Shown here in pieces: positions 4,179 through 64,000 of a DNA stretch of 64,000 bases. The DNA comes from a virus (lineage: Duplodnaviria > Caudoviricetes): the IMG/VR virus record IMGVR_UViG_3300032321_001056, positions 1 through 64,000 of that record. One strand, given 5' to 3'. Position numbers and translations under genes: made by a program. The first letter of the stretch is position 1. Every line of letters starts with the position of its first letter. Under the pieces are notes generated by a model that worked only from the letters and a program-made list of their open reading frames with translations, did not search any database and was not told the origin of the DNA.

Positions 4179-4179
4179 A

Positions 4180-7461: not shown

Positions 7462-7490
7462 AATTAAGCGTTATATAATACAACACTTAG

Positions 7491-7564
7491 CGTATCCGAT
7501 AGGACTTGAACCTACAACCTAAACATTAGAAGTGTTTTGCTCTATCCAATTGAGCTACGGATAC
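7491..7564 (-). tRNA. tRNA-Arg (anticodon UCU)
   Basis: GTATCCG/CGGATAC acceptor stem; TAGCTCAATTGGATAGAGCA D-arm; AAACA-CTTCTAA-TGTTT anticodon arm; GTAGG-TTCAAGT-CCTAT T-arm; CCA not encoded. Confidence 0.95.
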
Positions 7565-23245: not shown

Positions 23246-23839
23246 TTAATTTTCATCATCATCATGTTCAATTACATCCTCAACAATTTTTGTTGCTTTA
23301 CCGCTCATAATTTCAAATGCAATTTCAAGTTCTTTACGGACTTCATTTGCAATATCTGGGTACTTTGAAATAACATCACGCAAAATCTTTGACAGGATCT
23401 GATTAACATTCTCTGCTTTTTGCATTCTGGCAATGTATTCACCGTCAGTTTGGTTCCCGCCCATCAGTTTATGTAGCTGAGCTTTCTTTGTTGCCAAATC
23501 TCCAGCTAACTTAATAGCTTGAATTCTGGCTGCGACCATCCCATTGTCTGTTGCAATAGTAATGGTTTCCCAGGCTTCCTTGCTTAATTCATCAAATTCA
23601 GTAAGAGCTTTGATCGTATTAAACTGAACTTTTTCAAGGAAAAATGGATCTTCTTCAATTGTTTGATTTAAAATTAGTTTATATTCTTCAATATATTCTT
23701 TTATTTCATTTACAGGAATAGACATAAGAGTTGATATCTCTCTCATTGAATAACCCTTTACATGTAAAAGCCCGACTTGTTCAACATCTTTAATTTTTTC
23801 AATCAAGCTTTTTGTTTTAACTATTTCAATATCTGACAT
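23246..23839 (-). CDS. probable terminase small subunit
   Basis: Directly upstream of terL; N-terminal HTH (GYSMREISTLMSIPVNEIKEY) and helical body. Confidence 0.6.
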   Translation of the reverse strand: MSDIEIVKTKSLIEKIKDVEQVGLLHVKGYSMREISTLMSIPVNEIKEYIEEYKLILNQTIEEDPFFLEKVQFNTIKALTEFDELSKEAWETITIATDNGMVAARIQAIKLAGDLATKKAQLHKLMGGNQTDGEYIARMQKAENVNQILSKILRDVISKYPDIANEVRKELEIAFEIMSGKATKIVEDVIEHDDDEN

Positions 23840-24852
23840 AATCTATCTGCGTATCCTTTTGCAACCTTTTGCCAAGTCATATTTTTGTTTATATACACAG
23901 CTGATGAGTATGTCTTTTCCGACACCTCTTCGTAGTGCTTAGTTACATATAACATTTTATCACACAAATCATCGTAATCTGGCTTCGCCCAGTATCCAGC
24001 ATTTTCATATATACCAGACATCTTGTAATCAGAAAGAGAATAATTTAAAGGAATAGACATTTCTGCAAATTCTTCACATGCTGAAAAGTTAGTACATATT
24101 GTGGGAATACCTTTAGCAATAGCCTGGAATGGAATTAACCCCCATCCTTCTCCACTTGTCGGGTATAGGAGGCAATCTGCTCTATCATATATGGCAGCTA
24201 ATTCTTCAATTGATACTTTATTATCTATTACTTCAATTTGAGGATGATCTAAATTCTTTACTTCGCCAGAAACAATCATGCGAGCATCTGGGGGACCAGA
24301 AGATTTATAAATTAATTTGTAGTTGTCTTTACCAGAAAACAACTTAAGAAAAGCATCCACTGCTACTTGAGAATTCTTTCTTGTTGATGGAGAACCCATG
24401 CTTAAAAATGTAAATTGACTATGCGGTTTTCTTTTAATTGGAAAATAAAGCTGCTCATCAACGCCAAGATTAAAATTATAAACTGGCTTGAACACTCCGC
24501 TGTTAACAAAAACAGCCCGCATAAAATTAGATGTAGTCCATATCTCATCCATCTTATTGCATTGATTCACCCAATCATGCGGCAGCTTGTCAGTCTCCCA
24601 GTAAGAAAAACCTATATTATATTTTCCACTTGTGTTATAGGCTTCTGGTGTTGAATGATTTATTAAAATATCGGCATTAATATTATTTTTGTAAATATAC
24701 CCCATCTGAACATGATCTATCCAGTCTGGTCTTTTTGGCTCATCTTTGACTAACTGAATACCAGATTCGCTTATGCTCTTATATAAACTTGCAGAAGCAT
24801 CACCGTATCCTTCTCCAAACCTGGAGTTGCCGTTATCAGTCCAGACAATCAT
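23821..24852 (-). CDS. GT-B (family 4-like) glycosyltransferase
   Basis: RKNSQVAVDAF...YDRADCLLYPTSGEGWGLIPFQAIAKGIPTIC. Confidence 0.9.
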   Translation of the reverse strand: MIVWTDNGNSRFGEGYGDASASLYKSISESGIQLVKDEPKRPDWIDHVQMGYIYKNNINADILINHSTPEAYNTSGKYNIGFSYWETDKLPHDWVNQCNKMDEIWTTSNFMRAVFVNSGVFKPVYNFNLGVDEQLYFPIKRKPHSQFTFLSMGSPSTRKNSQVAVDAFLKLFSGKDNYKLIYKSSGPPDARMIVSGEVKNLDHPQIEVIDNKVSIEELAAIYDRADCLLYPTSGEGWGLIPFQAIAKGIPTICTNFSACEEFAEMSIPLNYSLSDYKMSGIYENAGYWAKPDYDDLCDKMLYVTKHYEEVSEKTYSSAVYINKNMTWQKVAKGYADRLCQILK

Positions 24853-38034: not shown

Positions 38035-38263
38035 TTTCTTTTTTAGCTTTCTTCCAAGTTGCCAACAGTATATCAAATTCGGAGTAACCACCATTAACGC
38101 CATATATAATTTCTTCACCCCATGCATTAATCAGACATTCTTTTCTGACCTCGCATGATTGGCAAATATTTTTTGCATATTGAACATCCTCATTTTTATA
38201 TGAGAACCAATAAATGCTGTTTTTATCTTCAGCGCAAAGGGCTTTTGTTCTCCAATTTACCAA
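37973..38263 (-). CDS. whiB: WhiB-like protein (second copy, divergent)
   Basis: W...ALC...WF...AKNICQSCEVRKECL...GVNGG. Confidence 0.85.
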   Translation of the reverse strand: MVNWRTKALCAEDKNSIYWFSYKNEDVQYAKNICQSCEVRKECLINAWGEEIIYGVNGGYSEFDILLATWKKAKKENDSNWNRTDRILQKLLRKAE

Positions 38264-42494: not shown

Positions 42495-43895
42495 TTATTT
42501 GAACGATGGTGGACCAAAGAATGTTGGTGGACCAAAGAAAGATGGTGGACCAAAGAAAGATGGAGGTACTGCACCGCAACCAGGACCAGTACAGTCAGAT
42601 ATCATTGTGTCAACACAAGTTCCATCACATGTGCAACCAGCATCGCATGTACGATGTTCCCAAATCTGGAAGCACCCACCACCACCACAATCTGCGGCTA
42701 CTGCATATTGACTTCCAATTGTGCATGTGCTGCATGTAGGGCTTACAACGGTTGTTGTGGTAGTTGGCACAGCATCTTCACTGCACAATGCCCCAGATGC
42801 TCCTTCTCGGCATTCTCCTGGATTATTACAATCATACACAGACCCAATATCCCCAGGTAGACAATACCTAGTCACCGCAGGTGTGCCTACAACAGTAGTT
42901 GTAGGAGGAGTAGATCCACATTCAGCAATACAATACGGAACCCCATCTACGATTGCATAAAGAACACCATCGCTCATTGCAAACTGAAATATTTCAGTAC
43001 CACTAGGAAAAACAATTCCATCCGCACTAATTTCTAATGCAGATTCAATATTATTACTTACTCTATTTCTAAGAGAATACGAGGTATATATACCATTATA
43101 GTTAACTTCTGATGTATAAGATCCATCATAAGAAGCACTAATAAAAACAGCTCCAGATGGATAACCGCCAATACCAGTTCCTGGACCATAGCCTGGACCA
43201 ATGACCATTTCTCCATCGTATCCACCACCGCTAGATAGATCATCTCCATCAACTTCCCAGCCAGCAATTTTTCCACCAGTGGCATAGATATCACCTGTAA
43301 CACTAAAGTTTAAAGTTTCTGGAAACCAATATATACCATTTGTATTTGAACCGACTTTGAAAGTTCCATCGCTATACCAATAATTTTGATCATTAATATA
43401 AACACTATCTGCTATCAAAGTACCTCTGATTGATGTGTTGGCAAAATAAGCATCGCCGTTACTTGATATAACCCACCCAGTAGTTCCAGGGTCTGTTATA
43501 CCTTTTGTGTTGGCATTATAAACACCATTCCAGTTGCCACTTGATATAATGTTATTAACAAGAACAAAATTCCCTGATAGTTTATCTGAGGTGATTGTCC
43601 CAGCGGATATGTTTTCAGCTCTAACTTGATTAGGCAGCAATCTCACCCCAGCAGTAGTTAATACATCTTCTTTTACAATTCTAGCGACAACCTCTTTAAA
43701 CTTTCCATAGTTATTAGCTTGCGGACCATCTTTCCTAGCCTGTGTCCCCAAAAAGTCTGTTGTAAAATCGTAAAGAGAATATTTTGATACATCAATAAGC
43801 GCAGAGGAGATCCCGTCATGGTTATGACCACCATTAAAAAATACAATACTACTTTCAGATACCCCTGCCGATAGCGGCGTTTTGCGCAATACCAT
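42495..43895 (-). CDS. tail fibre-like protein with Cys-rich C-terminus and GPPxFF repeats
   Basis: Start moved to MVLRKTP (TAATG coupling); fibre-like ITSDKLS/GKIAGW segments; about 19 Cys in the C-terminal ~140 aa. Confidence 0.7.
   Translation of the reverse strand: MVLRKTPLSAGVSESSIVFFNGGHNHDGISSALIDVSKYSLYDFTTDFLGTQARKDGPQANNYGKFKEVVARIVKEDVLTTAGVRLLPNQVRAENISAGTITSDKLSGNFVLVNNIISSGNWNGVYNANTKGITDPGTTGWVISSNGDAYFANTSIRGTLIADSVYINDQNYWYSDGTFKVGSNTNGIYWFPETLNFSVTGDIYATGGKIAGWEVDGDDLSSGGGYDGEMVIGPGYGPGTGIGGYPSGAVFISASYDGSYTSEVNYNGIYTSYSLRNRVSNNIESALEISADGIVFPSGTEIFQFAMSDGVLYAIVDGVPYCIAECGSTPPTTTVVGTPAVTRYCLPGDIGSVYDCNNPGECREGASGALCSEDAVPTTTTTVVSPTCSTCTIGSQYAVAADCGGGGCFQIWEHRTCDAGCTCDGTCVDTMISDCTGPGCGAVPPSFFGPPSFFGPPTFFGPPSFK
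42505..42566 (-). repeat. 18-bp tandem coding repeat (GPP[S/T]FF, ~3.5 copies)
   Basis: gatggtggaccaaagaa[a/t] units at 42505, 42523, 42541 and a partial copy at 42559. Confidence 0.9.
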
Positions 43896-46800
43896 TAAAT
43901 AACCTTCCTTATAACCATACTCTGACTTGGCTGTGACCCATAACCTATTTCTGTACTTATCACCCAATAATCACCATTAATTATATCAAAAGAATCCATT
44001 GAAGATATCCGAATTCGGTCCCCTAATTGAATTGTTGGTGTTGGGGTTATAGTAAGATTTAAAACTGGCACTGGATCGCTCATTTTAGATATTAAAAAAT
44101 CAGCAATAGTCTTAGCATGTGCCAAATTTGTTATAAATTCATTCTCAATAACAATTTCTTTCAAACCATAAAGGCGAATATTGTCACTTAATGTGTTAGT
44201 TTGCTCCCTAATGTCATTATTAGTCTGCTGGACAACAATTGGTATTCCAGCAATTGCAGTTACAGACTGTTCATTGTTTAACTCATCAGTCCCCTTTAGC
44301 CAGACTTCTGATGCGTCTGGGGCATACTGAGATGCAGCAACAATTAGATTAGCTTTATACGCATTTGGTTCAAATTTAATAATCTCTACAAGAGCTGGTC
44401 TCTTATTAAAGATTCCAGAAATAAGAGGATTTTGCACTTGATAGGCTGGAGCGGAGTTGTATGTTATCGTATACTGCTGAACTTCTCTAACCAGTGTGTT
44501 AGCAGTGTGAGCAGCAGCTATTGTATTAAAATATGCCCTAGTAAGGGTGTCTAAAGAGTTAGCAGACTTACTCTCGTATCTAATTATTTCATCATCTAAT
44601 TTGACATAACCGCTTTTTGGGAAGTATGGCTTATCAGTTGTCACCATTGGAATTGATGCCGCATTAGACGCAATATTTGCATTTAACTTTCCAACAGCCA
44701 GAGTAGTTCCATCCTCTACAGACCACAGCCCTTGAAGAGCATTATTTTTTGTTGAAACACCAGTTAATTTAACTGTTACCTTGTTAGCTTGCAATTGGAC
44801 ATTATAAGACGCATCAATGATATTTGTATCGTCAGAAAATGTTTTTTGGACACTGGCATGTTGAGCGATTGTGGGCTCAAAGAACCTGTAGTAGTGCTCA
44901 TACCTAGCCTTACCATACTCATCTATATACAGCCGACCAAGATCAGCAAGACTAATTGTATCAATTAATGATTGTATGGTGGTTTCGTTACCATAAATAA
45001 AAGGCATAACAAAAACTGGCTGCATTTGAGTTTCAATATAATGTTTTTTAATTTCTTCGTCAGTCAACATTTTTTTAAATATTGCAAACTCATCAATATA
45101 GAATGATCTAAATGATGCAGGCGGAGTTTCCACAGCAAACTCTTCAAGAGTTTCTGGGGTAAATAGTGCACCTCTCCCGCCTATTGTAAGATCCTTGCCA
45201 GTGTACGGAAGCAGTGTTCCAGTTGTTGTCACTGTATTGGCTAAAGCTCCGTTGATATAATACTTTAAAGTATTGGATTTATAAGTGACACCAATATGAG
45301 TGAATACTGAACTTGACAATGCTGTATTTGATGTGACTGTTGCTGTCCCAGTGCTTGTTTTAAACTTAAACCCATTAGAAGAAGATGTATTAAAAAACTC
45401 AAAACCAGATGTTGAAGTAGCATTTGACCAGTTACTTATGTATTCGCCAGTGCCAGCAAAAGATCCGTTATGGAATTTTGCATAAACTTCAATACTAAAT
45501 TCATTAGTGTAAGAACTGCTAGAGGAGTCAAAGATATCATAAGAGATGTGGTAGGGAACTCTTATATAGGAATTACTTGCGAGCAAGACACTTTTATTCC
45601 CTGGGTCAGACACAACACCGCTCGCTTGCCCAGTTAAAGCAGAGCCAACATACCTGCCATCATTACGATTTGCAACTCTTTCAACAAAATTTCCGCCCGT
45701 ATTTACGCTCCAAGAGCCGCTTGCAAAGTCTAGGTATGTTACATCGCTCTTGCTTCCAATATAATCAAAGCTTGGCATTGTAACACACTCATGTGCCCAC
45801 ACCCAGTCCGCTTCTGCCCCCTCAAATTCTTTTTTCAAGGCGATACCAAAATCGTCAGTTTTATGAAAGAATTCTATTCTGATTTCGTATAGCCTACCCG
45901 CTGTGAGATCCATCTCTTCAGTTTGGAAAGTTGTAGCAACATTGCTCCCTGGATCAACCTCATACCATGAATTTATTTCTGTCATATTTTTATTGAAAAT
46001 CATTCTGACACCGCAGTTTTTAACTTCAAGATTCAATCTGTGGATGCCGCTGCTTGAAGGGATATAATACCCATCAAACACACCATTATAGTAATCAGTT
46101 ATAGTTGAACCGTTAGAAGCTACAAAAGAATCATTTTGATAATTCAAAGCAACTGGCTCTGCTTCACCACCAGGCTGGGTGGAGATAACATTGGATGTAG
46201 AAGTAAAAGAAGGAGATACATATGTAATAATATCTAAAGATATTTCCTCAGCGGAAAGCGCTCTGTCGTTTGCGTCAAGCTTAATGTCTTTAATCGTGTT
46301 CTGCTGCTTCTCTGGGAGAGCAACGAACCTGGCTCTCAAGGAAGGAGAGGGTATCCTTGTGGTACTTGCTCTATCCACTGTATCTTCATCAAACCCAAAG
46401 TGCAAGATTGCATCGTCTTTCTTATATGTCTTTGAAGGTTTTGAGAAATAGTCAATATCTTTTTTTGGGAAATTAGTTCTCAACAAGAGATTATCAACAG
46501 CTTCTGCAATCGTGCTTTCTTGCATAAAATAACCGTTTGTAATCATTTTTTCATTTGTAAATTTATTCCAGTTAGTCAAGCTGGCATTGACAGACATATC
46601 GCTAGAAGATGACTGCCACTCGTCAACATAAAATATTCCACACGGCACATACTCGTATGGATCAAATTGAACAGTCTCACCAATGGTGTGATCTGAGGCT
46701 TCTGTGTCTCCAAAGCCTCTTTCAACAACAGTGAGGGTGTTGTATGAATCTTTATAACACAGGACTCTCTCCTGTGTTGTTGTCCCAGGATTTATGGTCA

Positions 46801-47929
46801 CAATAAAGTTATTGTCACCGCCCCCCTGAGGCATGTTCTCCGTTGTGTCAACTGTTATTGTTGACGAAGATGATATAATGTTTGCAGTCAAAACTGAGTT
46901 AATTAGTATTTCATTTGTTTTTTGTATCTGCCAACCTGTGTAAACATGCGCCCGTAAGTCTTTTTTCATATACTTTCCATATGTTGAAGAAGAACTAAAC
47001 AAGCTAAAATCTTTTCCGTTATTATCAAGTTTTAATGAGCAAGTTGAAGAACCACCACCTGCTATCGGGAGGCTTGTCTCATGGACATCTCTTACCTTAG
47101 CAACATTAAAATCCATTACATAGTCTGTAACATCTGTCTGGTAAATAGGGGCTACCTCATTCACCCTTGCACGATCAAGGGGATTCTTGGTAGTATAGAC
47201 AGTTAATACTACTTTGTTTATATTGTTGCTATTTAAGTAATGAGTATTATAATAAGAGTTGTCTGGTATTTCAGAATCAACATTAAATACCAATGTAGCT
47301 GTATTCTCATAGGCTTGAATGTTATAAGATTTAATTTGACCGCTATACTCTGCTGTAATAACTTTAAGCATATTTACAGGTCTTCCTACGAAATTATATT
47401 CAATAATCACTGGGCTGGAAAATTCATAACCATTTCTTGTTGCATGAGTATTACTGGTGCTTTTAACCCCAGAAATAAACCCAAATTCATAATTATCATC
47501 TTTTGATGATGGGAGAGCATGCCATTGACCATTGGCAGTAATAGTTTTGCCAAACTTATCTTTTGCATCACAAACAGCCCATGTAAATGACTGGCGTTCT
47601 ATCCCATTAATTGATTCATTTGGAGTAAAATAATAATCAGACCTGTTTCTTTTATTAAACTCTACCTCTTTGGTAGAGAGGGTGCGGTATGTTGGTGTTA
47701 TTCTGTTAGTCCTTAACAGCATCCCAGAAACTTCTAGGTTAATAGCATTTGTCGTTGCAGCTGTAAATGATGATGTGGAAGATGCAATTTCCGCATTATT
47801 ATATTTACCAACATGCCGACTATCTAGCCAATCAATTAAAATCAAAGGCTTAATTGTTTGAGATATGGCAGTAGTACTTTGAACAAAAGTATTTGATATC
47901 TGCTTACCATATAGACCGTACTGAAGCAT
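43895..47929 (-). CDS. large minor tail/receptor-binding protein with PA14 and LamG-like domains
   Basis: PA14-like FDGYYIPSSSG...LTAGRLYEIRIEF; LamG-like FSIEVY...HIGVTY...YYING...IDEFAIFKKMLTDEEIKKHY. Confidence 0.8.
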   Translation of the reverse strand: MLQYGLYGKQISNTFVQSTTAISQTIKPLILIDWLDSRHVGKYNNAEIASSTSSFTAATTNAINLEVSGMLLRTNRITPTYRTLSTKEVEFNKRNRSDYYFTPNESINGIERQSFTWAVCDAKDKFGKTITANGQWHALPSSKDDNYEFGFISGVKSTSNTHATRNGYEFSSPVIIEYNFVGRPVNMLKVITAEYSGQIKSYNIQAYENTATLVFNVDSEIPDNSYYNTHYLNSNNINKVVLTVYTTKNPLDRARVNEVAPIYQTDVTDYVMDFNVAKVRDVHETSLPIAGGGSSTCSLKLDNNGKDFSLFSSSSTYGKYMKKDLRAHVYTGWQIQKTNEILINSVLTANIISSSSTITVDTTENMPQGGGDNNFIVTINPGTTTQERVLCYKDSYNTLTVVERGFGDTEASDHTIGETVQFDPYEYVPCGIFYVDEWQSSSSDMSVNASLTNWNKFTNEKMITNGYFMQESTIAEAVDNLLLRTNFPKKDIDYFSKPSKTYKKDDAILHFGFDEDTVDRASTTRIPSPSLRARFVALPEKQQNTIKDIKLDANDRALSAEEISLDIITYVSPSFTSTSNVISTQPGGEAEPVALNYQNDSFVASNGSTITDYYNGVFDGYYIPSSSGIHRLNLEVKNCGVRMIFNKNMTEINSWYEVDPGSNVATTFQTEEMDLTAGRLYEIRIEFFHKTDDFGIALKKEFEGAEADWVWAHECVTMPSFDYIGSKSDVTYLDFASGSWSVNTGGNFVERVANRNDGRYVGSALTGQASGVVSDPGNKSVLLASNSYIRVPYHISYDIFDSSSSSYTNEFSIEVYAKFHNGSFAGTGEYISNWSNATSTSGFEFFNTSSSNGFKFKTSTGTATVTSNTALSSSVFTHIGVTYKSNTLKYYINGALANTVTTTGTLLPYTGKDLTIGGRGALFTPETLEEFAVETPPASFRSFYIDEFAIFKKMLTDEEIKKHYIETQMQPVFVMPFIYGNETTIQSLIDTISLADLGRLYIDEYGKARYEHYYRFFEPTIAQHASVQKTFSDDTNIIDASYNVQLQANKVTVKLTGVSTKNNALQGLWSVEDGTTLAVGKLNANIASNAASIPMVTTDKPYFPKSGYVKLDDEIIRYESKSANSLDTLTRAYFNTIAAAHTANTLVREVQQYTITYNSAPAYQVQNPLISGIFNKRPALVEIIKFEPNAYKANLIVAASQYAPDASEVWLKGTDELNNEQSVTAIAGIPIVVQQTNNDIREQTNTLSDNIRLYGLKEIVIENEFITNLAHAKTIADFLISKMSDPVPVLNLTITPTPTIQLGDRIRISSMDSFDIINGDYWVISTEIGYGSQPSQSMVIRKVI

Positions 47930-48988
47930 TTACACCTCTTCCAGCGTTATAGAGCAGTCCCAGAAATAAACATCATTAGACAAATCCCTTCTAATCAATG
48001 ACTCATTATAATCTTTCACCAATACATTATAACTTGTTTCTGTTGGTGGTGTAGCGCCAGACTCATCTAAATTAACTATTTTTAATGTATGATGGCTTGG
48101 GTCTGCCGCTATCGTCTTAATATAATCACGAGCTTCTTTTTGATCCGCCGTATACTCTAGTGAATTAGGGAGCCATGACCATGAGAGACTGAATGTTCTT
48201 CTACCCGCCCTGCTTGTTGATTTATAACGCCTTGTCTTTCTGTTGTTCCAATTAACATTTTGAGTAAAGATTGGCTCAAGACCAGATTCAAATATCCTAT
48301 TGTGATTTGTAATTGCCTTTCCATCAATAAGCATAAATGTTCTAATTACGGATGAATCAACAACCCCATTAACAGCAAACTTAATTGCCTCAGCAGTCAT
48401 ATTTCCCATCTCAACAAGATTAATTCTAATCGTTGCAAGAGTTATTCTACCAGCAACGGTTAATTGCAATGATGATGACAATGCAGAAATTGCTTGAGAA
48501 ATCTTAATGCCAGCACTGCTTAGCGATACAGACGCAGATGTAGCAACAGCCGCTGCTGCTATCTTGATAGATGAAACAGTGGTGCTAGCAGATGATGACA
48601 GTGTTGATGAGGAATTTGCAATTTTCACAACTGTTTGAGACAAAGATGCTGAAGAGCTAGGAGAAGCTTCAGAGTGCGCAAACTTCATCATGGATACAGT
48701 CATTGTTGTATTTGCAGAAACATCCACAAGAGCATCTTGTCTCTCTGTTGCAACAATAGCGGTAACTGATAAACCAGACAAGGCAACAACAGCTTGAGAA
48801 ATCTTATACGAAGTTGCTGTTACATCTGAATTAGATGAAAGAGAGACTGTCGCTGCTGACAACTTGTAGGAATCAACCACCAAGTTTGCAGATGAAGTTA
48901 AAATTACTACTACATCATTTGCATCTGCTGAGTAGAAATCAATACCACTATTCAGGGGCTCCGAGAAGCTAAACCAACTAGCAGTCAT
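47930..48988 (-). CDS. minor tail protein: Ser/Ala-rich repeats plus a distal-tail-like domain
   Basis: Low-complexity S/A region; C-terminal ~130 aa paralogous to 48989..49384. Confidence 0.75.
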   Translation of the reverse strand: MTASWFSFSEPLNSGIDFYSADANDVVVILTSSANLVVDSYKLSAATVSLSSNSDVTATSYKISQAVVALSGLSVTAIVATERQDALVDVSANTTMTVSMMKFAHSEASPSSSASLSQTVVKIANSSSTLSSSASTTVSSIKIAAAAVATSASVSLSSAGIKISQAISALSSSLQLTVAGRITLATIRINLVEMGNMTAEAIKFAVNGVVDSSVIRTFMLIDGKAITNHNRIFESGLEPIFTQNVNWNNRKTRRYKSTSRAGRRTFSLSWSWLPNSLEYTADQKEARDYIKTIAADPSHHTLKIVNLDESGATPPTETSYNVLVKDYNESLIRRDLSNDVYFWDCSITLEEV

Positions 48989-49384
48989 TTAGACCTCCAC
49001 CAAAGAAATCTCAACATCGTAATACGAACACTTTGTTGGCATATGTCTTCTTATCAGTTTTTCTGAATATGAATCAATAAAGCATTCATATTCTGTATAC
49101 CCCTCACCTGGGGCTAGTTCTATCCCGACTGTTACGCTCGCTCTCGTGTTGACTAAATTGCTTAAATAGCTCTGTCCAACCCGACCATCTGCAGTTACAC
49201 TCTGTACACTTGGAAGGTACTTCCAGCTTATTGAAAACTTCTGTTTATTCTTAGAATAGTATCTTCTTCTATGACCGCTAGCCAAATCAATATCGTTAGC
49301 AGCAATTTCCTCATCAACTTTCAATGTTCTTCCGTGCTCTGTAATCTCAACACCGTCAATTGTCAGCAGCTTGTATAGGTCCAT
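48989..49384 (-). CDS. probable distal tail protein
   Basis: Immediately follows the TMP; FSISWKYLP...CSYYDVEISLVEV. Confidence 0.7.
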   Translation of the reverse strand: MDLYKLLTIDGVEITEHGRTLKVDEEIAANDIDLASGHRRRYYSKNKQKFSISWKYLPSVQSVTADGRVGQSYLSNLVNTRASVTVGIELAPGEGYTEYECFIDSYSEKLIRRHMPTKCSYYDVEISLVEV

Positions 49385-52300
49385 TATTGACCCCTATTCA
49401 AACCATTGTATGTTGAAATTACACGATTTTCAAGACCAGCCGCTTTTTGATTTTTTGGCAAAATCTTTGTATTGTAATCTTTCATCATTGAGTTAAACCA
49501 TTCTGGCTCTCCGATAAAGTTGTCAACATATATGTTTACATTCTGTGTTGATGTTGTCATTCCACCAGCCATGTTTCCACTGTATGATGCCTGTGGTACT
49601 GAGAATCCTGCGCTTGGAACATTAAACTTCATTTGATTCATCGCTTCAAGATGAGCCAAGCCGTACTTCTTTACAGCAGCAGCATTAAGAACATATTCTC
49701 CGCCATGAAGAATAGAAGGTACTTCTCCGCCTTCTTTAAAGTTAAGATAACCACCTTTCTTAAAGCGTGGAGGTTCAAAATTACCTTTTTCAAATTCTTT
49801 CCAAATATATCGTGAAGATCTAGACGGTAAAAAACTGCTTATTTTTTCTTTTATTTTTGACATAAAAGTATAAATATCTTTAGTTCTGTTAAACAAATTA
49901 AATCTTTGCTCGCCTATTGGTAAATTTATTTCTGGGTTTTCTAGAAGATTCCACTCCTGCCCTCTCTTTATGCCAAAAACTTTTCCTATTTGTCTTAAAA
50001 GCGGGGAGTCGCCCCAAGCTCCTTGGTCAGTAAGATTATTATAAAGTTGTTGACCTACCTTTCTTTGAATTTCTGCATGATTAAACAATTCCCAAGATTG
50101 CGGTATTATTCTTGGATCGCTATCAATCACTGGAGAACTGGGAGATTGGAATATATTCTTAAAAATATTTATAATTCCTTCTGTTAATTCCTCTTCATCT
50201 GGAATACCGCTCGTTTTTCTAAGACCGAGCATTTTATTAATATATTCATTCCATTTAAATACATCCGCTTCTTCGTCTAAAATTTTTGGCATGTCTCCAG
50301 ACAATTGCAAGCGAGCTTTAACTAAAAGTCTTTGTATTGTTTCATCTAAAGAATTACTATCTCTAAATGAACGGGCTCCAGATATCATATCTAATTCATC
50401 AAACAAATCTATTATTTCCCTATCTATACCTTTCTTTCCAACAATACTTTCTACTGATGGTAATAGATCCCTAGTAGGGTTAGAAATTATTGAACTAGGA
50501 TTTCCAGATTGCAAAACTTTCTTTCCATAATTTTTCAATGCGCCTGGGATTGAATACAGGAATCCATCAGCTTTCAATTCAAATTGTGATGCTCCTTGTT
50601 TAATTTTATTCCATGTCATTTTGGTTCCAATTTCTAAAGCATTCGGGAGCAAAGAGGCATCCATGCCAAGAAGACCAAGCCTATTCATGGCTATATCGCC
50701 CACACCCTTCAACGCTGGTCCGAACATTCTTTTAGCTATTGGAGTAAATGGCTTTGCAACAGCACCAACAATCTTGTCACCGTAAATTGTAGAAATAACA
50801 TTTGCAGCATCTCCAAAACCATACTTTTTGTTATTAGCTATTTGACCAAACCCACCAGTTTTTCCACCAGGAATGTTTAGACCAGTAGCCTGGTTAAGAC
50901 CACGAATCCAGTTCACTCCTTCTTTCTCTGTCCTAAGAACTCTATTGTCCAAATTCTTCATTGGATTAAAGCTATATCTCTTATCCAGCAATGCCATTGG
51001 TGATTCAACAACACTTGCACCTATGTTGTAAGCTGAATCTCCAAGTTTGACAAATGACTGGATCGTGTCTGTAGCCATATTAAGAACACCCTTGCCAATC
51101 CCGCCAACTTTACCCCAGAAACCTTTCTTCTTCTTAGGAAGCATTGGACCAATAAAACCGCCTTGCTCAAAGCGTGGAACTTTAGGACCACCGAAGCGAG
51201 TAACCGATCTACGAACAGCTGAGTCAACATAAGCAAGGGCTTCTTTTTGGGTCAATGTGCTTGGGATTTTTATTTCAGACAATACTTTAAGTGGATTTTT
51301 TGAAACAAATGAATTTGGATCAACATCATCAAAAATATCTGATGATTTTGGCATTCCCTTTGGTCCTCTTACGACATAAACACTTCCACCTGGGGCAGGA
51401 GCTGGATAAGTTCCTTTAACTTTCCCCCACCCAGCTCTTGCACTTGCATTGTCAGTTCCAGTGTATTTCCAACTACCTTCAGTCATACCTGGTTGCATTG
51501 TTGCTTTCTTCAAGAAAGCAAGCGGATCTTTATTCCCAATTGCCGCATCAGCAAAAGGTTTTATTTCAGTTAACCCTTGTGTTGGTGAACTATGAAGGAA
51601 TATTTCTTCACGCTTAATATAATTACGAAGTCTTGCAATATTACTTCTTACTTTATTAAATACACCCGTGATACCACTGTTTTCACGGTACTGTGCGAGG
51701 GCAGTTGCCAATTCTTCTTTTGTTGATGTGATTGGCAATTCTGCCAAAATTTTCTGCCAAGGAGACATTCTGGCTTCTGTCCACATAACATTGGGGTCCA
51801 TTTCAATACCACCTTTTGATCTTGTGATATAGAAAGAAGATGAACTTGGGTCTGACAATTGGCTAACCCCTCCTTCACCAACTCCATACCCTTGCCTTTC
51901 TGCAAAACCTTTTGCATATTTAGCTACATCGTCTACAGTGCCCTGTAGCCAAGAATATGTTTTTCCAGGTAATTGATCACTAGGTCCAGTCCTTAAAGCC
52001 CCCTCAACTGCGTTAATTGATGAAAGACCAGATCTACCAGCATGGATACCAATTTTTTTCGCAAATGGATTAAATTTAATTAATTTATTAAAAATTGAAG
52101 TTAGCGGTCCAGCTTTATAGAAGTCGCTGCCGCTATATGGGAATAAACTAGATGGAGGTACTGGATTCATTGGTGTCATAGGTCTACCACTAGGCGAAAT
52201 ATACGGCGGTTTTTTATTTAATCTTACATACTCTTCATAAAACTCTTTGTTTTTATTTTCTCTTACAGCTCTAATTGCAATATTATCCGATCTAAAAATA

Positions 52301-55300
52301 TTTTTAAACCACCCTTCAACTGGAGCTTCATAATTTCTTAATGTATTACCTAAAGAATCTAACCCACCTTGCTTCCAGCTTCCTCCAAACGCTTTTAAGT
52401 AATCTCCAGCAACAGGGCTTATTTTACTTATTCCTTTTCCTAGAGAAGAAAGGGCTTTTGATTTTGTATATGAAACACCAGCTTTGATAAGACCTGGAAT
52501 TTCTGCGGCATCCATACCAGCGAGACCAAGCCTGTTCATAGCTACATCGCCCATACCTCTCAGAGCAGGCGTGCCATATTTTGCAAGAGCAGGCATTATA
52601 AATCTTTCACCTATGGCACCTGCACCTGCCCCCAAGCCATACATCGCTCCTTGCAGTAACATATTCTTTCCAATATCAAGCGGCTGGAAGCCTTTCTTCT
52701 TGTCAAACGCTTGTTCAACTAATGAACCAATTCCTCCGCCAGCTGCAGAGCCAGCCATACCAGCAGCGACCATTGCAGCGGGACCGCCTGGAGTTGCAAG
52801 TATAGCCGCAAGAGTTCCTCCAGCAATTGCAAATGAATTCTTTGGTCTTAATATTTCTTTACCTATATTGAAAGCACCCTTGCCAACACCAGCGACCTTA
52901 CCCCAGAAACTCTTATTCTTCTTTGGAAGCATTGGACCAATAAAACCGCCTTGCTCAAATTTCTTTACTTTTGGTAGTTGTTTTTTAGTTTTATTTAATT
53001 TTGATTGCATTTGCAACCATGCAGTCCACTGAGGATCTGTTCCGCCAGCAATTGGCGGATTTCCCATACGCCATTGAGCATCCATTCTTGTAACAATAGT
53101 AGGAGCTGCTAGATTGTAACCCATGTTGCTGCGCCAGGCGTTAATATCCGCTGGCAATAAGTACCCCTCCCCTTTGTAAGCTGCATCATAACTCATAATT
53201 GAATTGAGCATTTGTGAACTACTGTTACCACCATACTTATTTTTTAAAGAACTTACATATTCATGAGGGTGATCAAACCCTCCAATATGACCGAACTCAT
53301 GCATAAATACTTCCTTATGAAGTGAAGGATCACCCCACATTAAATTTTTACTTCCAGTATTATAAGCCATTGATGCTGTATTTATTTTTCCATCTTTATT
53401 AAAAACTCCACCAGGTAAATGTATACCTGCACTAGTCTGCCCAGCCCACCATTTATTGGGCTGATAAGCAGTGTTTACATCAAGAAGCATTTGATTTCTT
53501 CTATTTAATTTTGATTTCTCTAATAATGGACCAGCAAATTCAAAAGGAATACCTAAATATGTTGACATTGTAGCCATTGCATCGGATATACCTTGGTGCA
53601 TGGTGAGCATCCTTCTATGATCTGTTGAAAATCCATCAGCCTCTTCGTTATGACGATTTGCGGCTATTCTATAAGCAGCATCACCGTCATTTCTTAATAA
53701 ATCATCATCATTCCAATAAAGTGGATTTACATATATTTTCTTTAGCCCTCTGATTATCAAAGCATTATTTGGCTTATAATTAACCATTCCACGAGCAATT
53801 TCTTGCTGAGTGTTTATAGCATCATTAACATATGCCAATTGAGGAGGCATATTGCCTACAAATTGAGGTTCAGGCAGATGAGAGTAATAACTATTACCGC
53901 CTATTGATTCTTCATGGTCTTTACGAAGCTGATCAATATATATATCAAGAGCTTCAGGAAAATCACCGCCCATTTTTTTCTTGTAATCTTTAATTTGAGT
54001 CTTCCAAGGTTCTTTATTGACATCAAACGCTGGTTTCTTTTCAAAAGTTGTTTGATTTTGATTACCACCCTTACCTTTCTTGCCAAAAAACCAAGACAAA
54101 GGATTCAAATTCTTGAGCTTTGGCAAGCCAAAGCTCTTGAGCCTTGGTAAGCCAAAGCCAGGCTTCAAAAAACCGCCAAGTTTGAATTGTGGAATCATTC
54201 CGCCGAGGTATTTTTTAACACCACTATCTGATCTTGTCCACCTGTTCTTTCCATCCCATACTATGGAAACATCTTCACCTTTCTTTCCGCCCAGTGGGAT
54301 TCTATCTGTTGGGTAGTAGCCAAGAATATGGCGATACCGAACAGGAAAGCCAAATGAGCCTACTGGTTCACCTATGTGGTCTTTCCATGTGGTCATTTGC
54401 GGTTGTCTATCTGCTCCGCCTCCTTCATGATGAATCCAAGGCGGATCTGGTTGATTTGTATAACCAGCCCAAGGAGCATCTGGTTCATAACTTCCATCTT
54501 GTGGGTATCGTTTTTCAGGCGGAATAATTGGAGTTATTCTTCCACGCCTTCTTGAATTTGGGTCTTGTTCTTTAGGAATTTGCCTTCTTGAAGATGGATT
54601 GCCTTTTACCCTAATTTGATCTTCATAACGATCTGGACTTACATGACCTCTAGACCAAATCCAAGGATCACCAGCTTTTCTCAAAAAACCACCATTTGCA
54701 AAACCTAGAGCCTTATCAAATTTTTTCAATTCATTAAGAGGCTGGAAAAATACCCTATTTTTTCTTACACCTTCATACCCATCCAGGAACTTAGGTTGTC
54801 TATAGTATTCATATTGGCTATCTGGAATTCCCTTAAAGGCAACCATTTCAGCAATCTTTACTTGATCTTGCCAAGATGGAGTTGCATTTGGATTATTAAA
54901 GTTTCCTACATCAACACCAGTTTGCTTCTTATAAGCATTGCTATAAATCTGCCATGTTTTTCTTGCAATATTTAATGGACCAACAAATACTCCACGACTT
55001 GTTTTTGTTGTTGCACCGAGCGCATTCATCCAATCAGGACCAGATTCAGATCTAGCTATTGCAGCCCAGTCAAGCATGTGCATTGTTGTTCCAGTTGCTT
55101 TACCAGACCTGATGTTTACATTTGGAACGGTATAAGATTGACCACTATTATTAGTAAATGTTCTAAGGCTACTGTCATCACTTGGATTAATTGGCTCAGA
55201 ATCTTTTGGTCTTCTTCTTACTGCACCGCCACGAGCAAATCCAGGCGCTGTCATATATCCACCGTTTGCAAAACCTGGAGCTGTCATATAACCGCCATTT

Positions 55301-58300
55301 GCAAACCCAGGAGCAGTCATGTATCCGCCAGAAGCAAATCCCCTCCAAGCACCGCCGTTCTTTAGTGAGTTAATTCTTTCAAGGTTTCCTTTTCCAAACT
55401 TCTCCACAGCTTTGTGGTTGATAATGTATTCACCACCGTGAAGTAACGCAGGAATTCCTTGTGACGCTGGCGCTTCTAAGAAGCCACCACGACCATATTG
55501 ACCAATAGACCCACCGTTGTACATTTTTGGCAGAAGCGGTCCGCTACCAGCACCACCGCTAAGGTCTACTGTTGACCCTGGAAGATTAATTCCTGCCATT
55601 ATCTTTATTGCCCAGCCTTGTTCAAAAGGAGTCAAGCCAGATGTAGGGAGAATGGCTTTGATTCCAACCACACCTCTTAATATATTGCTTGCAATTAAGC
55701 TAACAATTCTTGCAGCAGATGCAGCCATAGCAGTTCTTTGCGCAGGACTGGCAAATCCAGTTTGCATAAGACCAGTAGCTGTTTTTGTCCACTCATCAAT
55801 TGTTGATTGTGGTATTGATGCAATTTCTGGGGCACCGCCAATACCTTGCAAAGCGGAACTTGCTTTTGCCGCTTGAGTTACAATTTGATCAACTAATGGT
55901 TTAATTTCCGCTAGAAGATTACTAAAGCTAGCCAAAATTTTAGGGAATGCAATATCTCTATTTAATTCACCTTTCAGCTTTTCAAACGCATCATTTCCAG
56001 CTTTTTGCCAAATATCAGCAATGTTATTCTTATTACCTTTTTCTGAAAGTGAAGATGTAATTTTTGCAATAGCGTCAACTGCTGGTTGCACATATGTTGT
56101 AGCAAATGTAGGATTGAAAGCTGCCTTAAACCCTTCCTCGCTCCCAATAGCCATCATTCTTACAGCACCAAGAACTGTTGAAGGGCTAGCTACTTTATTA
56201 TCTACTCCAAATTTCTTAGATGCTTCTCTAATCAAATCATCCATATTGGCACTAAACATCTTGATAGATGGATCACGAACTCCAGCGATAATGGCTGGAA
56301 GCTCACCAATGTTTTTAGCAAAAACTTTGGCTAGATCAGACGAAGAAACATTTGCTTGATCCCCAACTTTTTTTAGGGCAGCAGCAAATTCTTCTTGTGT
56401 TGCAAAACTCTTATTCTTTACATCTTCAATAAACCGATCAAATGAATCAAGGACTTCCTGGAATTGTTTCTCGGCAAGATCTTTTTGATTTGAAATTGCT
56501 TGCTTAGCTAAATCTCTTTGTTCTGACTGGAGCTGAGATAGCCTGTCGGTATCAAGATCTTGAATTTCTTGGTTAGAATTTCTTTGAGCCAATACCTCTT
56601 CTCTGTCAAGCTTTCTAACATCAAACGCACGACCCTCGTAAACCGCCAGTCTTCTCTCTACCAAGTAGTTTCCACGATCAGTCTCTCTCTGATCAATCAT
56701 CTCTCTACGCTTTGTTTCGTAGTCTTTCTTAGCCGTTAATCTTGCTTCAGCATCAGCAAGAGCATCAATACCAGCAATTTGGTCATCATAAGCTTTCAAC
56801 TGCTGATCTTTTTGCTTTTCTAATGCATCAGTATATTGTTGAATAATATTGTCAAATTTAGCATCAACATTTGAATAAAAGTAACCTTTCAAAGTATCTT
56901 TTATTTCTTTCATCTTATCTTTTATACCATTAGCGATCTGACTTCCAAGTGATTCTCCGCCTGATGAGGCAGCATCAGCTGATTGTTTTACATTATATGC
57001 TAATGCATCTTTATAGCCCTTTGGATCTTTAAGAGCTTGTGTCAATGGTACATTTATACCTTTACCAATTAATTCAAAATACTTTTTAGAAGCAATGTCA
57101 AGTTGACCAACCATAACTGTATCAAATATTGATTTAATTTTAGGTAATAGATCACCGATACCTTTATCTACATTTGCAGCAAAATCTGATTGAACTTTGT
57201 CAGATTCAGCACTACCACTTGAGCCAGCAGTAGTTTTTTTATTATCAAACTTTCCAGATCTTAGGGCATCCCTTTGCTCTGTTAAGGACATTCCTTTTGT
57301 AGTGTAATTTTGTCCACCAGGACCATTACGAACATATTTAGATACTGGTGTATCAATTCCATATGTTTGACTTTTAACAACAGCAGCTAAAACATTATTA
57401 AGAATTCCATTTGCCATATCTTTCCCAGCGGCTACTGAAAGCTGAATTAGAGCAACAAACATTTGACCAAATATGTTTAATATACCCTTTGCTATTTCAC
57501 CAAATACTGGTGTTAATGTAATAGATACATTTATGATTCCATCTACTAATTGTTTAAATATATTGATAACATCATAATAGAAGGACCACATTATTGCTTT
57601 AATTTTTTTCATTCCAGATTCAGTGTCACCGCTAGCAAAATTTTTGATAGCAGAACCAAGAAGAATAAACTTGTTAATTATTCTAACAAGCTGAGGCGCT
57701 ATTGTATTTTTCATAAATGCAGCGCCAGTTGTCTTAGCCCAGTTCCGAATGGCTTCTGCGGCTTTCTTTATAAATCCAGTTATTGAGTAGAATAATGCAG
57801 CGTTCTTCTCCCCCTCTGTTGCAAATTGTCCAAGAACTTTGTTTCCACCTGTGAATTGATTAATTACATCTCTAATCGGAGCAAACAATGCTGCAACAGC
57901 TTCTTTAATAGCAGCAAAAGCATCTTTTAGATTTTGCATTGATGAATCTAAACGACCAGATGCTGATTTCCATGCTCCAAAGAATCCAACAAGAATCGCT
58001 ATAACTGGAAGAGCTATGAGCACTGCAGTGCCAACTAGTGCTATTGTACTAGCTAACTTCGTAAACATATTCATCATCTTTTCACCAGCTTTAACTATTC
58101 CGCCATCAAATAGTCCACCAGCAGCAGCGACTGTTTTACGAACTAAACCAGCTGGTGATTTACCTTGTTCTGACCTCAATGTATTCATTGCAGAAATTGC
58201 TTTTTTAGCACCAGAAATTCCATAATCCCCAGATGTAGCAAGATTCTTTATTGCGTTGAAAGCTTTCTTTGCTGGACCAACTAGCGCAGATAGACCGCCA

Positions 58301-61300
58301 GATAATGCAAATAGCCAAACTTTAAATGTTGTTTTTCCTAAAATAGATTGCAATCTTGAGAAATTACCAATCAATTTTCCACTAAGAACTCTATTAGCTT
58401 TTTCAAGTTCAATTTGTGAAACTCTTCCAAACTGGCTTACCTTTTCTATACTCTTCAATACTCCCTTATCATCAAATCTTGCAAAGATTCCTTTAGCTGT
58501 CATTCTTTTTGCAAGACCTGGGAATGTTGAAATACCTTCAGCTGTTGAATCTTGAGTTAGTGCATCTGCAAACTTTCTATTATTAAAGAACTTTCCAAGT
58601 AACCCTTTTCTTCCTGTTTTTGGACTATTAAAACCCAAAGCGCCAGCAGTAGGTGGTGGTAGAAGATTTGTAGCACTTACTGTCTCTGCTGCTGTTACAA
58701 GCGCTGCGGCTGCCTGTTCTCCACCAGCAGCTATTGAAGCAGCTGCTTCTTTTGCGGGGAGTGTTACTTCATCAAAATTTGGAATCATATCTTGCAAGTT
58801 TGCATCAAAGATATTTTCCGAGAAAATGTTTGGACCTTTAAATAAGTGTCCGATCTTATCAATATTTAGAACTTTTCCAGCACCGCCAGTTGCTGATGGT
58901 GTTGCAGGAGTTGGTATTACTGGTGTTGTAGGAGTTGGAATTCTTGGAGGCGGTGCTGTTGGCGCTGTACCTCCAGTTGTTCCAGTTGGTATGATTGAAG
59001 ATGGTGCTGTCGGTGCAACAGTAGAAGCAAGTTGCGCAAGCTGGTATTCAGCAACAACATACTTATCCCTTGCAAAAGCAAGATCTTGTAATTGCTTATT
59101 GAGCTTAGCTAAATTCTTTTCTGGTCCCTTTCTCATCGCTGGTGATGTAAATGTATTAAGGAGTTTTTGTTCCCCAGCAATCATCCCTTGAAGTCTTTCA
59201 ATTTCTTTTTCAAAATGTGTGACCGTTAATTTCTTAATTTTTGCGGAAGCACCAGAAGCTTTAGCGTCAATACCTAATTGCCTTGCTAATTCTCGCTGAG
59301 CGGATTCCATCATCTTTTCTGCTTGCCTCTTTGTTGCTGGCAATTCTATTCCAGTATTCTTAAAACTCTTAACGGTTGCAGGGGTTGGAGATATAGTAGG
59401 CGATGTGGTTGTTGGCAATTGAGCTGCAGCAACAGGGGTAACTGGAGCTTGTACAACTGGCAGCATCCCAGACAATCTATTTGCAAGTTGATTTCTCAAA
59501 TCTTCAGCGGCTTGTTTCATACCAATAGGATCAGACTTAGCCAAGCTCATATCAACTTTCTTAGCAATCTTATTCATTACTTTTTTAGGTGCCTGAACTA
59601 TGTCATCAATGCCAGAAAAAGCATTATTAACAATTTGCTCTACTTTCTTTTCAACAACAGCCTTTGCACCTTTAGGAGCATTTTTTGCGGCTCTGGTTCT
59701 TGCAGCAAGTGGTCTCCACCAATCATTGATACCTCTTCTACTAACTTTTGTTGCATCTTGATCAAAAGAACCGCCAAGACCAACAAATCCACCAGACATT
59801 GATTGATACACAAGATTTTGTAATGCACCAGTTATCCCCCGACTCGTTCCAAAATTCTCACCTTCCTTAAGTTTTATTAAACTAGAGCCAAACAGTAGTT
59901 CTTGAAGCCCCATTTTTTCTCCGTCAAGACCTTGAGTTTTTTTGCGCAATCTTTCAAAGAAAGCTTTAAGACTTGCTGGAGTGCCGCCCTTAAGACCATC
60001 ACGACCAGCGGTACCACCTTTAAATGTCTTTGTTACATCATTAACGACATTATTTACTGACAAGTTTATCATTGACTCAATTTGATCCTGAGTCATTCCT
60101 GGAATGTTCATTGTTGCTGTCAAGAAATTTCTCAGAACATTAGGTAAATGTTTATGTTTTGTTTTAGTTGAAGCCAATCTTCTCATAACTTCAGAAATAT
60201 GTTTAACTTCAGTTTGAGATGTTGAAACAACAGTCAATAATTGTTCTTCCAAGCTATCTGCAAATCTCATAATGATATCGCTTCCAGTAAACTGAGTGTA
60301 GTCAAATGCGGCACTTAAGCTCTTAGGGAAGCGGAATAAACTCTTAACACGACCAAAAACTCCTGGAGTTTTTGCACTTGCAGCAATTGCTTCAGTTTCA
60401 GATGCTGATCTCTTGAAAATTTGTTTTATCCCAACGGTTGACAAGAATCTTTGCCCACTTCTTGGGTTAAGTATTCTTTTTGCGTTCAACTGCTGGAATC
60501 TTGGGTCATTAAAGAAACGAGAACCACTATATTTAAATGTATCTAATGGTAAATTATCTCCAACTGCCTTTTTTTGAGTAGGGATAAAATTCCACATTGG
60601 GTTTACAGGTGCAGCTCTTCTAATTGGAGCAACTGCCTGATTAAATTTTTCCCCAAAGAATCGTGAGCCTTTATATTTTGTCCAAGGAAGATTTATACCT
60701 CTTGTTGCATCTTCAATATCACCTTCAAGTTTTTGCACTGGGGCGTACATTTCCTTTAGACGCTGTTTCAAATTCAATATTGATGTTTGCCTACTGGCTC
60801 TTCTCTTCATTTTACTATCTTTTGAGCTTAATAATTCAGCATTCAACATTTCTCTTTCAGAGGCAATAAATTCTTCATGAGGTGTGAGCTGAGGCATTAC
60901 TCTTGGCTTAGGGAGCTTTGCTGTTTCAGCGTCAATCAATCTTTGTATAGCGGCAGGTGATTCATCTAAATTCTGACGCAATCTTCTTAATGAAGCGGTT
61001 TTCTGAGCATTTAAGATATCAATTTCATCTTGAAATGCAATTTTTATTTCTTCCAACTTGGCTAAACCAGCTTTTTCAAGTTTTGCTTTGCCAGTTTTTG
61101 TTATTTTCATTTCTTCAGTAATTATATCTTTAGCATTCTTTAATTCTAAATCTCTTAATCTGACTTGCTCAGCAATAAGATCATCTATCTCGGCTACGCT
61201 ATTTCTAGACACTTCTTGAGCTGCTAATAACTCAGTTTCATTTATAGCAAGACTCATATCAACACCATTAGGTGAAATCATAGTTTTATTTCTAGATAAA

Positions 61301-63999: not shown

Positions 64000-64000
64000 T

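Follow-up and report, generated by a model that had tools for sequence, protein, structure and literature searches.

An array of apparently exchangeable cassettes, with a predicted ADP-ribosyltransferase domain, inside a giant phage tape measure protein

Why would a phage tape measure protein (TMP) hold two copies of its C-terminal module, and what is the long stretch of polypeptide between them for? The question is raised by the first 64,000 nucleotides (the window) of the IMG/VR virus record IMGVR_UViG_3300032321_001056, a contig of 78,507 bp with a CheckV completeness of 69%. The long open reading frames (ORFs) in the window all lie on the minus strand, and one of them stays open for ~16 kb, from a stop codon at 49384-49386 up to contig position 65463. 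Counted from the first Met on the whole contig it encodes a TMP of 5,358 residues, the last 4,871 of which fall inside the window and are referred to as P0001. Five cassettes lie between the two C-terminal modules, bounded by joints of the form [FY]xxGG (Table 1), and comparison with related phages indicates that whole cassettes are exchanged at these joints while the TMP frame is kept. On balance, we think it probable that the TMP is a polymorphic carrier whose cargo would be delivered ahead of the DNA, with an ADP-ribosyltransferase (ART) domain acting in the host. The arrangement described in the original prediction for this locus was confirmed as an observation, and the interpretation given to it was partly supported.

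The identification of the protein as a TMP, which had been predicted, follows from a match to PF10145 (PhageMin_Tail) at residues 247-468 of the full-length protein that exceeds the cut-off (42.4 versus 33.2 bits), from matches to TMP families in PHROGs, and from the synteny of the tail genes. The PHROG families match residues 4746-4871 of P0001 near the ends of their profiles, and both of the modules containing LHGGEY match the C-terminal ends of such families (phrog_3547, 2.6e-7; phrog_3336, 4.4e-7). The gene is located between the tail-tip genes and the chaperone position, where two overlapping small ORFs and a 198-residue ORF are found that have no family match. The order of the tail genes around the TMP is identical in every relative fetched (including L001-L007).

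The two LHGGEY modules are 1,911 residues apart, in agreement with the ~1,900 residues given originally. Additionally, all of the recurring linkers that had been listed between them are present: FASGG at P0001 residue 2888, FANGG at 2899, 2910 and 3100, FARGG at 2921, YLGG at 3264, FKLGG at 3272, FEQGG at 3681 and 4277, FKKGG at 4746 and FKEGG at 4754. The last 2,072 residues contain 11 copies of [FY]xxGG, versus 2.3 +/- 1.4 in shuffled sequences, and in 24 relatives the density of the motif is 5.5 per 1,000 residues in the cargo versus 0.38 in the body (14-fold). The joints look like the first half of the C-terminal module (P-[KR]-F-x-x-G-G-[FY]). A two-copy profile of this module detects two to three copies in P0002-P0024 and a single terminal copy in P0025-P0051. 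Cassette D is flanked by direct repeats of 104 nt that share 85% identity and are separated by 1,788 bp. Cutting the cargo at each [FY]xxGG was tried as a general rule and fails, as long stretches in some relatives are joint-free; the joint is frequent, not obligatory. The second C-terminal module and the terminal end are 94-98% identical in close relatives, with a ratio of nonsynonymous to synonymous substitution rates (dN/dS) of 0.045-0.058, and the terminal 71 residues are likely to be a plug of the tail tip.

A word-index search returned 52 giant TMPs of 2,700-6,400 residues, all of which are metagenomic, and no relative was found by protein or by DNA among the INPHARED phages. The ruler body could be aligned over 59-100% of its length in P0002-P0016 (>89% except in the shorter P0013), and the cargo blocks are present or absent in these proteins in varying combinations. 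Across 24 relatives the frame is constant (C-terminal module, repeats, cargo, C-terminal module, end) and the cargo is a mosaic. A greedy module census of these relatives, used because bin-graph clustering had merged everything into one component via the internal repeats, revealed a minimum of 20 additional cargo stretches, non-homologous and 105-1,209 residues long. The homology breakpoints at residues 3686, 4282/4283 and 4744 are located beside joints. In P0002 and P0003, D3 runs straight into the last C-terminal module, at the slot filled by cassette E in this phage, and in P0004 the repeats run straight into cassette C. In line with the original proposal of exchange at the linkers, the cargo varies from relative to relative and the breakpoints lie at the joints.

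The substitution rates tell a similar story. Relative to P0002 (L003, the closest relative), the synonymous rate (dS) is 0.15 in D1, 0.32 in cassette A, 1.17 in D2 and 1.43 in the first C-terminal module, and this 10-fold spread between neighboring blocks points to block-wise exchange. The dN/dS values, which were determined for the blocks shared with P0002/P0003 (E1 and E2 lie outside this comparison), are 0.12-0.51 in A, B, C, D1, D2 and D3 and 0.35 in the body. The two measures together suggest that the cassettes are functional and have separate histories. They also bear on the alternative that the array is an artefact, whether through chimeric assembly, through read-through across several genes or through decay into a pseudogene. 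The contig does come from a metagenome assembly (78.5 kb) that is incomplete, and internal repeats could mislead assemblers. We nonetheless give this explanation almost no weight, as the frame is open over 16 kb, purifying selection is seen in all blocks comparable with P0002/P0003, and P0054, which comes from another record, is 100% identical over the D2-D3 stretch (residues 3880-4276). Furthermore, more than 20 intact relatives (3,000-6,400 residues) from independent ENA, JGI and Logan assemblies share the layout, and for this reason the gene is not considered an assembly artefact; the frameshift or assembly error considered in the original prediction is ruled against.

The first and third cassettes resemble known enzymes. 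Cassette A by itself scores 14.7 bits against PF06737 (cut-off 27), and its homologue in P0017 (41% identical, E 1e-36) passes the same cut-off with 33.3 bits. Through this homologue, the Rpf-like block of the original prediction can be assigned as a predicted Rpf-like transglycosylase. Cassette A reads ARSESGPDW, and the Glu present in this motif is tentatively equated with the catalytic Glu of the CESGG type by motif reading. Cassette B has no family match in Pfam, PHROGs or NCBIfam and occurs only in P0002 and P0003, the two closest relatives, with a dN/dS of 0.12-0.32. Cassette C is predicted to be a serralysin-type metzincin with an intact zinc motif and Met-turn, consistent with what was first proposed. 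Its HEFGHIGGFDH (residues 3567-3577), of the form HExxHxxGxxH, is invariant in P0002, P0003 and P0004, and its NSIMSYD (residues 3599-3605) is invariant in the relatives and pairs with SIMSY in the alignment with protease C. The best profile matches in the PDB are to the serralysin-family protease C (E 0.029) and span both motifs. The matches to Reprolysin_2 to _5 have 15-16 bits and stay below the curated cut-offs of 22-27, and a single-sequence search of the PDB gave no match.

Zincin motifs are found in the cargo of 8 of the 24 relatives in four unrelated sequence contexts. Motifs in unrelated cargo are located at residues 3889 and 4475 of P0023, 2868 of P0024, 5156 of P0019 and 4195 of P0011. 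The record of P0023 also has a match to the sortase family, and a sortase-like Cys motif is found inside the P0023 cargo.

Cassette D begins with D1, a module with 34% Gly and Ala, and the copy of D1 in a relative matches PF21724 (DUF6861, E 6e-6). Two pre-toxin-like segments had been proposed for the array. D1, the first of these, contains a hydrophobic glycine-zipper-like stretch. The second is not supported: E1 has one motif and the initial ~35 residues in common with D1 and lacks a hydrophobic stretch. In the ESM Atlas, E2 matches only unnamed viral clusters. No match to any part of cassettes D and E was found in Pfam, PHROGs or NCBIfam.

D3 is predicted to be an ART of the His-Tyr-Glu type. 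An AlphaFold model of this domain has a predicted local distance difference test (pLDDT) of 70.8 and a predicted template modeling score (pTM) of 0.71. When the model was compared with the PDB using Foldseek, the ADP-ribosyltransferase Arr accounted for hits 1, 2 and 5 (E 0.012, probability 0.90), and ~40 of the 50 best VIA matches were ART chains. The individual fold scores are modest, and the weight of the result comes from one superfamily dominating the match list. The triad residues are His4136, Tyr4208 and Glu4242, and Ser4138 follows the His at +2. In a family of 28 members the His and a Ser/Thr at +2 are found in all 28, the Tyr in 26 and the Glu in 24. These conserved residues are located on core strands 31-38, 106-113 and 137-144 of the model, where the active site is presumed to be. 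There was no Pfam match between D3 and the Arr family (PF12120) at E up to 1, profile searches of the PDB with 8 or 28 sequences gave no match for D3, and the ART block has no relative in IMG/VR.

D2 is a putative second ART domain, probably a diverged one. Residues His3986, Tyr4057, Asp4068-x-Asn4070 and Glu4087 are invariant in five sequences, and the His, Tyr and Glu have the same order and spacing as in D3. Sequence and profile searches of the PDB gave no match for D2, and the ESM Atlas held no usable match. The profiles of D2 (E 0.028) and D3 (E 0.6) both weakly touch module X13 of P0005. X13 (residues 5373-5480) is located behind a D1-like segment and could represent a third and more remote module of the ART type.

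Relatives of D3 are also found outside of TMPs. Among 1.84 billion representative proteins there were 10 matches, five of which are stand-alone proteins of 246-305 residues, and in a profile search the number of stand-alone proteins of the D3 type rises to 33, all unnamed. The members of this stand-alone family (at least 33, among P0057-P0096) are 180-340 residues long and combine a basic MAxRKPK N-terminus with a Gly/Ala-rich segment and a D3-type domain. Several of the genes are located on contigs of ~39 kb; most of the contigs are too short for context. One of them (L009:462-1325) is directly upstream of a large terminase gene (L009:1343-3304). The first 68 residues encoded by this terminase gene weakly match the small terminase family phrog_4102 (E 3e-4), and the gene may encode a fused small and large terminase.

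How might such a protein work? A recent structural study determined that the C-terminus of the Douge TMP forms a trimeric plug in the tail tip and that the TMP leaves first (PMC13033339), and in T5 the TMP likewise plugs the tip as a trimer, fills the lumen and leaves first (PMC10038345). In the working model that we favor, the protein would have four parts in order: a ruler body of ~3,300 residues, the first C-terminal module, the cargo array, and the second C-terminal module with its conserved 71-residue end. As in T5 and Douge, the conserved end would plug the tail tip, the cargo would sit just behind it in the tail lumen, and the cargo would exit first once the tip opens. Because the cargo lies behind this end, which is the most conserved part (dN/dS ~0.05), we infer that it would be the first material at the envelope. 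The transglycosylase, and perhaps the metzincin too, would attack the cell wall, and the D1 glycine zipper would insert in the membrane and help the ART domain(s) into the cytoplasm. There the ART domain would modify a host target with nicotinamide adenine dinucleotide (NAD+) before or during DNA entry, and the joints may double as cleavage sites. An RNA polymerase fused to the TMP of P23-45 (gp96) works inside the host (PMC10770324). In Tde1, a glycine zipper that has TMP homologues is located upstream of the toxin domain and is needed for membrane translocation (PMC10240207).

Several points weigh against this model. All of its delivery and release steps are inferred, and three copies of folded domains of 20-45 kDa cannot fit in the tail lumen, so the cargo would have to travel unfolded. 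Sequence and profile searches of Pfam and the PDB return no known ART. The sole link between D2 and D3 is an hhalign comparison (E 0.006, probability 6%) in which the His, Tyr and Glu motifs are in register, and a profile-to-sequence search found no link; of the two Arr-like ARTs originally proposed, D3 is thus supported by its fold and D2 only weakly by this comparison. No function could be assigned to blocks B and E2, and the model of E2 is poor (pLDDT 51, pTM 0.25). The cargo of 16 of the 24 relatives has joints and no HExxH, which argues against a general self-cutting role of the metzincin and weakens the earlier suggestion that the cargo is released by its own protease. Finally, TMPs commonly contain muralytic and metallopeptidase parts, so that a portion of the cargo may simply serve entry.

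The last point can be extended to the whole array. The modules might do nothing other than breach the wall or build a channel for the DNA, in which case the ART-fold domains would be structural, envelope-acting or inactive relics. Parts of the Rpf-like and metallopeptidase types are a regular feature of TMPs (PMC10770324; T5 pb2). The commonest modules in the census are not recognizable cytoplasmic enzymes (E2, the most frequent of all, in 14/24 relatives, D1-like segments in 12/24 and A in 10/24), and the ART modules are in the minority (D2 in 6 and D3 in 4 of the 24). We regard this explanation as rather unlikely. The His-Tyr-Glu triad of D3 is kept across the 28 members, the stand-alone phage proteins included, which argues for catalysis with NAD+, a cofactor of the cytoplasm. 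A glycine zipper placed next to an enzyme fits a known translocation design (PMC10240207), and P23-45 shows that enzymes borne by a TMP can work in the cell.

The joints raise a different possibility, namely that the ORF is a polyprotein whose joints are cleaved while the tail is being built, with some or all of the cassettes being discarded or placed elsewhere in the virion or the infected cell and not ejected through the tail. Lambda gpH is cut during tail assembly. Maturation cleavage of TMPs is established (PMC10038345), and the T5 cut after Arg1127 in FVPR/AEGG (the slash marks the cut) resembles the joints VPR/FEQGG and PPR/FKKGG of this protein. For polyvalent proteins, too, processing by zincin-like peptidases is assumed (PMC5512222). 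The cut fragment of T5, however, remains in the tail tip. As the most conserved part of the protein is the terminal plug, the cargo has to go through the tail lumen at the very least while the tail is assembled. The likeness of the cut sites is anecdotal: BLASTP found nothing between the C-terminal module and T5 pb2, and a profile of 79 copies of the module scores T5 pb2 no higher than 999 shuffles. The lack of HExxH in the cargo of the 16 relatives mentioned above also speaks against processing by the cargo itself. We therefore hold assembly-time cutting to be improbable, more so than a role restricted to entry, and delivery of the cargo into the host remains the reading that we prefer.

A broader version of the delivery model can be put forward only tentatively, and we lean against it at present. 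TMPs would then be a general modular platform for effector injection by long-tailed phages, in which the C-terminal module and the joints serve as recombination and processing sites and a cassette of zipper and enzyme translocates itself. An Arr-like ART would modify RNA polymerase, nucleic acid or a defense component within seconds of adsorption, before phage gene expression, and the ~30 cargo types of this single phage lineage would represent a largely unexplored pool of early takeover and anti-defense enzymes.

Should delivery of the cargo take place, a second route for pre-made enzymes, with exchangeable plug-in cassettes, would run through the tail lumen, next to the route via the head that is taken by T4 Alt, MuF fusions and the N4 RNA polymerase. 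New phage enzymes that act early could then be sought in metagenomes by a simple sequence rule, which is to look between repeated TMP C-terminal modules, where most of the modules have no known family. Additionally, delivery would explain TMPs that are far longer than the tail length demands. The stand-alone relatives of D3 beside terminase genes on the ~39-kb contigs would constitute an uncharacterized phage ART family.

The remaining genes help to place the phage. The contig also codes for a DNA polymerase, a helicase and a terminase. Two WhiB genes score above the Pfam cut-off (13609-13815 and 38078-38254 in the window, both on the minus strand; 68.2 and 47.7 bits), and WhiB is a marker of actinobacterial phages (PMC10202952, PMC10914622). 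The two WhiB matches together with the Rpf-like block suggest an actinobacterial host, and the phage is probably an uncultured siphophage of a freshwater actinobacterium. The 131-residue gene downstream of the TMP gene has a sole match to phrog_1194 (function unknown, E 1.4e-4). It follows the TMP gene in all of the relatives fetched, in most cases with a start that is adjacent to the TMP stop or overlaps it. The ruler body contains hydrophobic segments at 57955-58077 (-) (P0001 residues 1975-2015) and 63421-63605 (-) (residues 132-193), with Kyte-Doolittle values of up to 2.87; these are the usual candidates for the membrane-channel part of a TMP and are distinct from the glycine zipper of the cargo. 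A single tRNA-Arg (anticodon TCT) is found at 7490-7564 (-), and a glycosyltransferase gene at 23821-24852 (-) adjoins the terminase region (phrog_2170, E 3e-38).

Table 1. Coordinates of the TMP gene, its parts and the neighboring tail genes in the 64,000-nt window (residues refer to P0001).
Feature	Window position	Strand	Residues	Remarks
TMP gene	49384..64000	(-)		Last 4,871 of 5,358 codons; start at contig position 65460, beyond the window
Cargo-bearing TMP end	49384-55527	(-)		Last ~2,050 residues
First TMP C-terminal module	55339..55527	(-)	2825-2887	LHGGEY at 2853
Tandem GGYMTAPGFAN repeats	55225..55338	(-)	2888-2925	Coded by 3 x 33 nt
Cassette A, predicted Rpf-like transglycosylase	54703..55224	(-)	2926-3099	Followed by FANGG joint, 54688-54702
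Cassette B, Pro/Arg/Trp-rich block	54187..54687	(-)	3105-3271	Followed by FKLGG joint, 54172-54186
Cassette C, predicted serralysin-type metzincin	52960..54171	(-)	3277-3680	Followed by FEQGG joint, 52945-52959
Cassette C zinc motif HEFGHIGGFDH	53269-53301	(-)		
Cassette C Met-turn SIMSY	53188-53202	(-)		
Cassette D1, Gly/Ala-rich module	52324..52944	(-)		Glycine-zipper-like hydrophobic stretch at residues 3723-3761
D2, probable diverged ART-like domain	51670..52323	(-)	3893-4110	
D3, predicted ART-fold domain, His-Tyr-Glu type	51172..51669	(-)	4111-4276	Followed by FEQGG joint, 51157-51171
E1, paralogue of the start of D1	50560..51156	(-)	4282-4480	No hydrophobic stretch
E2, helical domain	49765..50559	(-)	4481-4745	Conserved LFDELD and DPRIIPxSxE
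Second C-terminal module and end	49387..49764	(-)	4746-4800 (module)	LHGGEY at 4764; terminal 71 residues
Direct repeat, copy 1	52856..52959			Start of cassette D; perfect 35-bp run 52925-52959
Direct repeat, copy 2	51068..51171			Start of cassette E; perfect 35-bp run 51137-51171
Tail-tip gene block	43895..49384	(-)		Downstream of the TMP gene
Conserved 131-aa gene	48989-49384	(-)		Directly downstream of the TMP gene
352-aa gene	47930-48988	(-)		Distal-tail-protein position
1,344-aa tip protein	43895-47929	(-)		PA14 and Laminin_G_3

Several parts of this picture are already known, including the muralytic motifs in actinophage TMPs, T5 pb2, the P23-45 fusion, TMP-like effectors of contractile injection systems (CIS) and polyvalent proteins. 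The original impression that nothing comparable is described was too strong in view of P23-45 gp96, T5 pb2 and the mycobacteriophage TMPs. Full-text literature searches that combined TMPs with ARTs, with polymorphic toxins or with polyvalent proteins turned up no such cassette array. A study by Chaban et al. 2024 (PMC10770324) described gp96 of P23-45, a TMP of 5,002 residues with a virion RNA polymerase, which is likewise a giant TMP with a host-acting enzyme. It also has a metallopeptidase and membrane segments and establishes the TMP as a possible delivery vehicle. Unlike the protein described here, gp96 has one N-terminal enzyme, no repeated C-terminal module, no glycine joints and no reported swapping. 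Its cargo is an RNA polymerase, in contrast to a predicted transglycosylase, metzincin and ART here, and the likeness is one of description only.

TM4 gp17, in the 2006 work of Piuri and Hatfull, is reportedly a mycobacteriophage TMP with an embedded Rpf-like/peptidase motif. The mycobacteriophage TMPs share with this protein an actinobacterial host and an Rpf-like muralytic motif within the TMP, but they have 1,100-1,700 residues and one or two small motifs, with no described ART, metzincin array or pool of 30 types. Douge gp16 (PDB 8zdo, PMC13033339) has two GG...xGE[FY][IV] modules at residues 966-1011 and 1407-1458, with a weak match to the modules described here (E 0.013), and its last 42 residues plug the tip (PMC13033339). 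In T5 pb2 (Linares et al. 2023, PMC10038345) a hydrophobic stretch is followed by a C-terminal piece that is reported to be muralytic. The protein is cut during assembly and the piece with the reported motif stays in the tip (PMC10038345). The HGTE within the reported peptidase motif of T5 pb2 parallels HGGE in this protein, and T5 pb2 has a single C-terminal piece of 92 residues where an array is found here. As homology to T5 pb2 is unsupported, this comparison is an analogy only.

The acidic residue of the triad in Arr is Asp, and D3 keeps a Glu at this position. Arr, the rifampin ADP-ribosyltransferase (PDB 2hw2, 9iaf, 9iba), is the best Foldseek match of D3 and has a similarly small size and a His/Tyr/acidic triad; unlike Arr, D3 is embedded in a TMP, and it has no match to Arr at the sequence level in Pfam or in PDB profile searches. 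The type VI secretion system effector Tde1 (Ali et al. 2023, PMC10240207) has a hydrophobic segment rich in GxxxG before its toxic domain, which resembles D1 by description, and the TMP-related CIS effectors Sle1/Sle2 (Nagakubo et al. 2026, PMC13277306) have exchangeable functional domains. Tde1 and Sle1/Sle2 belong to bacterial secretion or contractile systems and not to phage virions.

The polyvalent proteins described by Iyer et al. 2017 (PMC5512222) string ARTs, zincin-like peptidases, transglycosylases and numerous domains without assignment together in large polypeptides, much as is seen here, and are assumed to pass into the cell together with the DNA and to be cleaved by peptidases of their own. 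That study nowhere mentions tape measure proteins. The several unrelated enzyme domains that characterize polyvalent proteins are found in this ORF as a predicted transglycosylase, metzincin and ART fold. The known polyvalent proteins ride on MuF, portal, DarB, relaxase or N4 RNA polymerase, whereas the carrier here is a TMP and the joints between its domains are a fixed motif.

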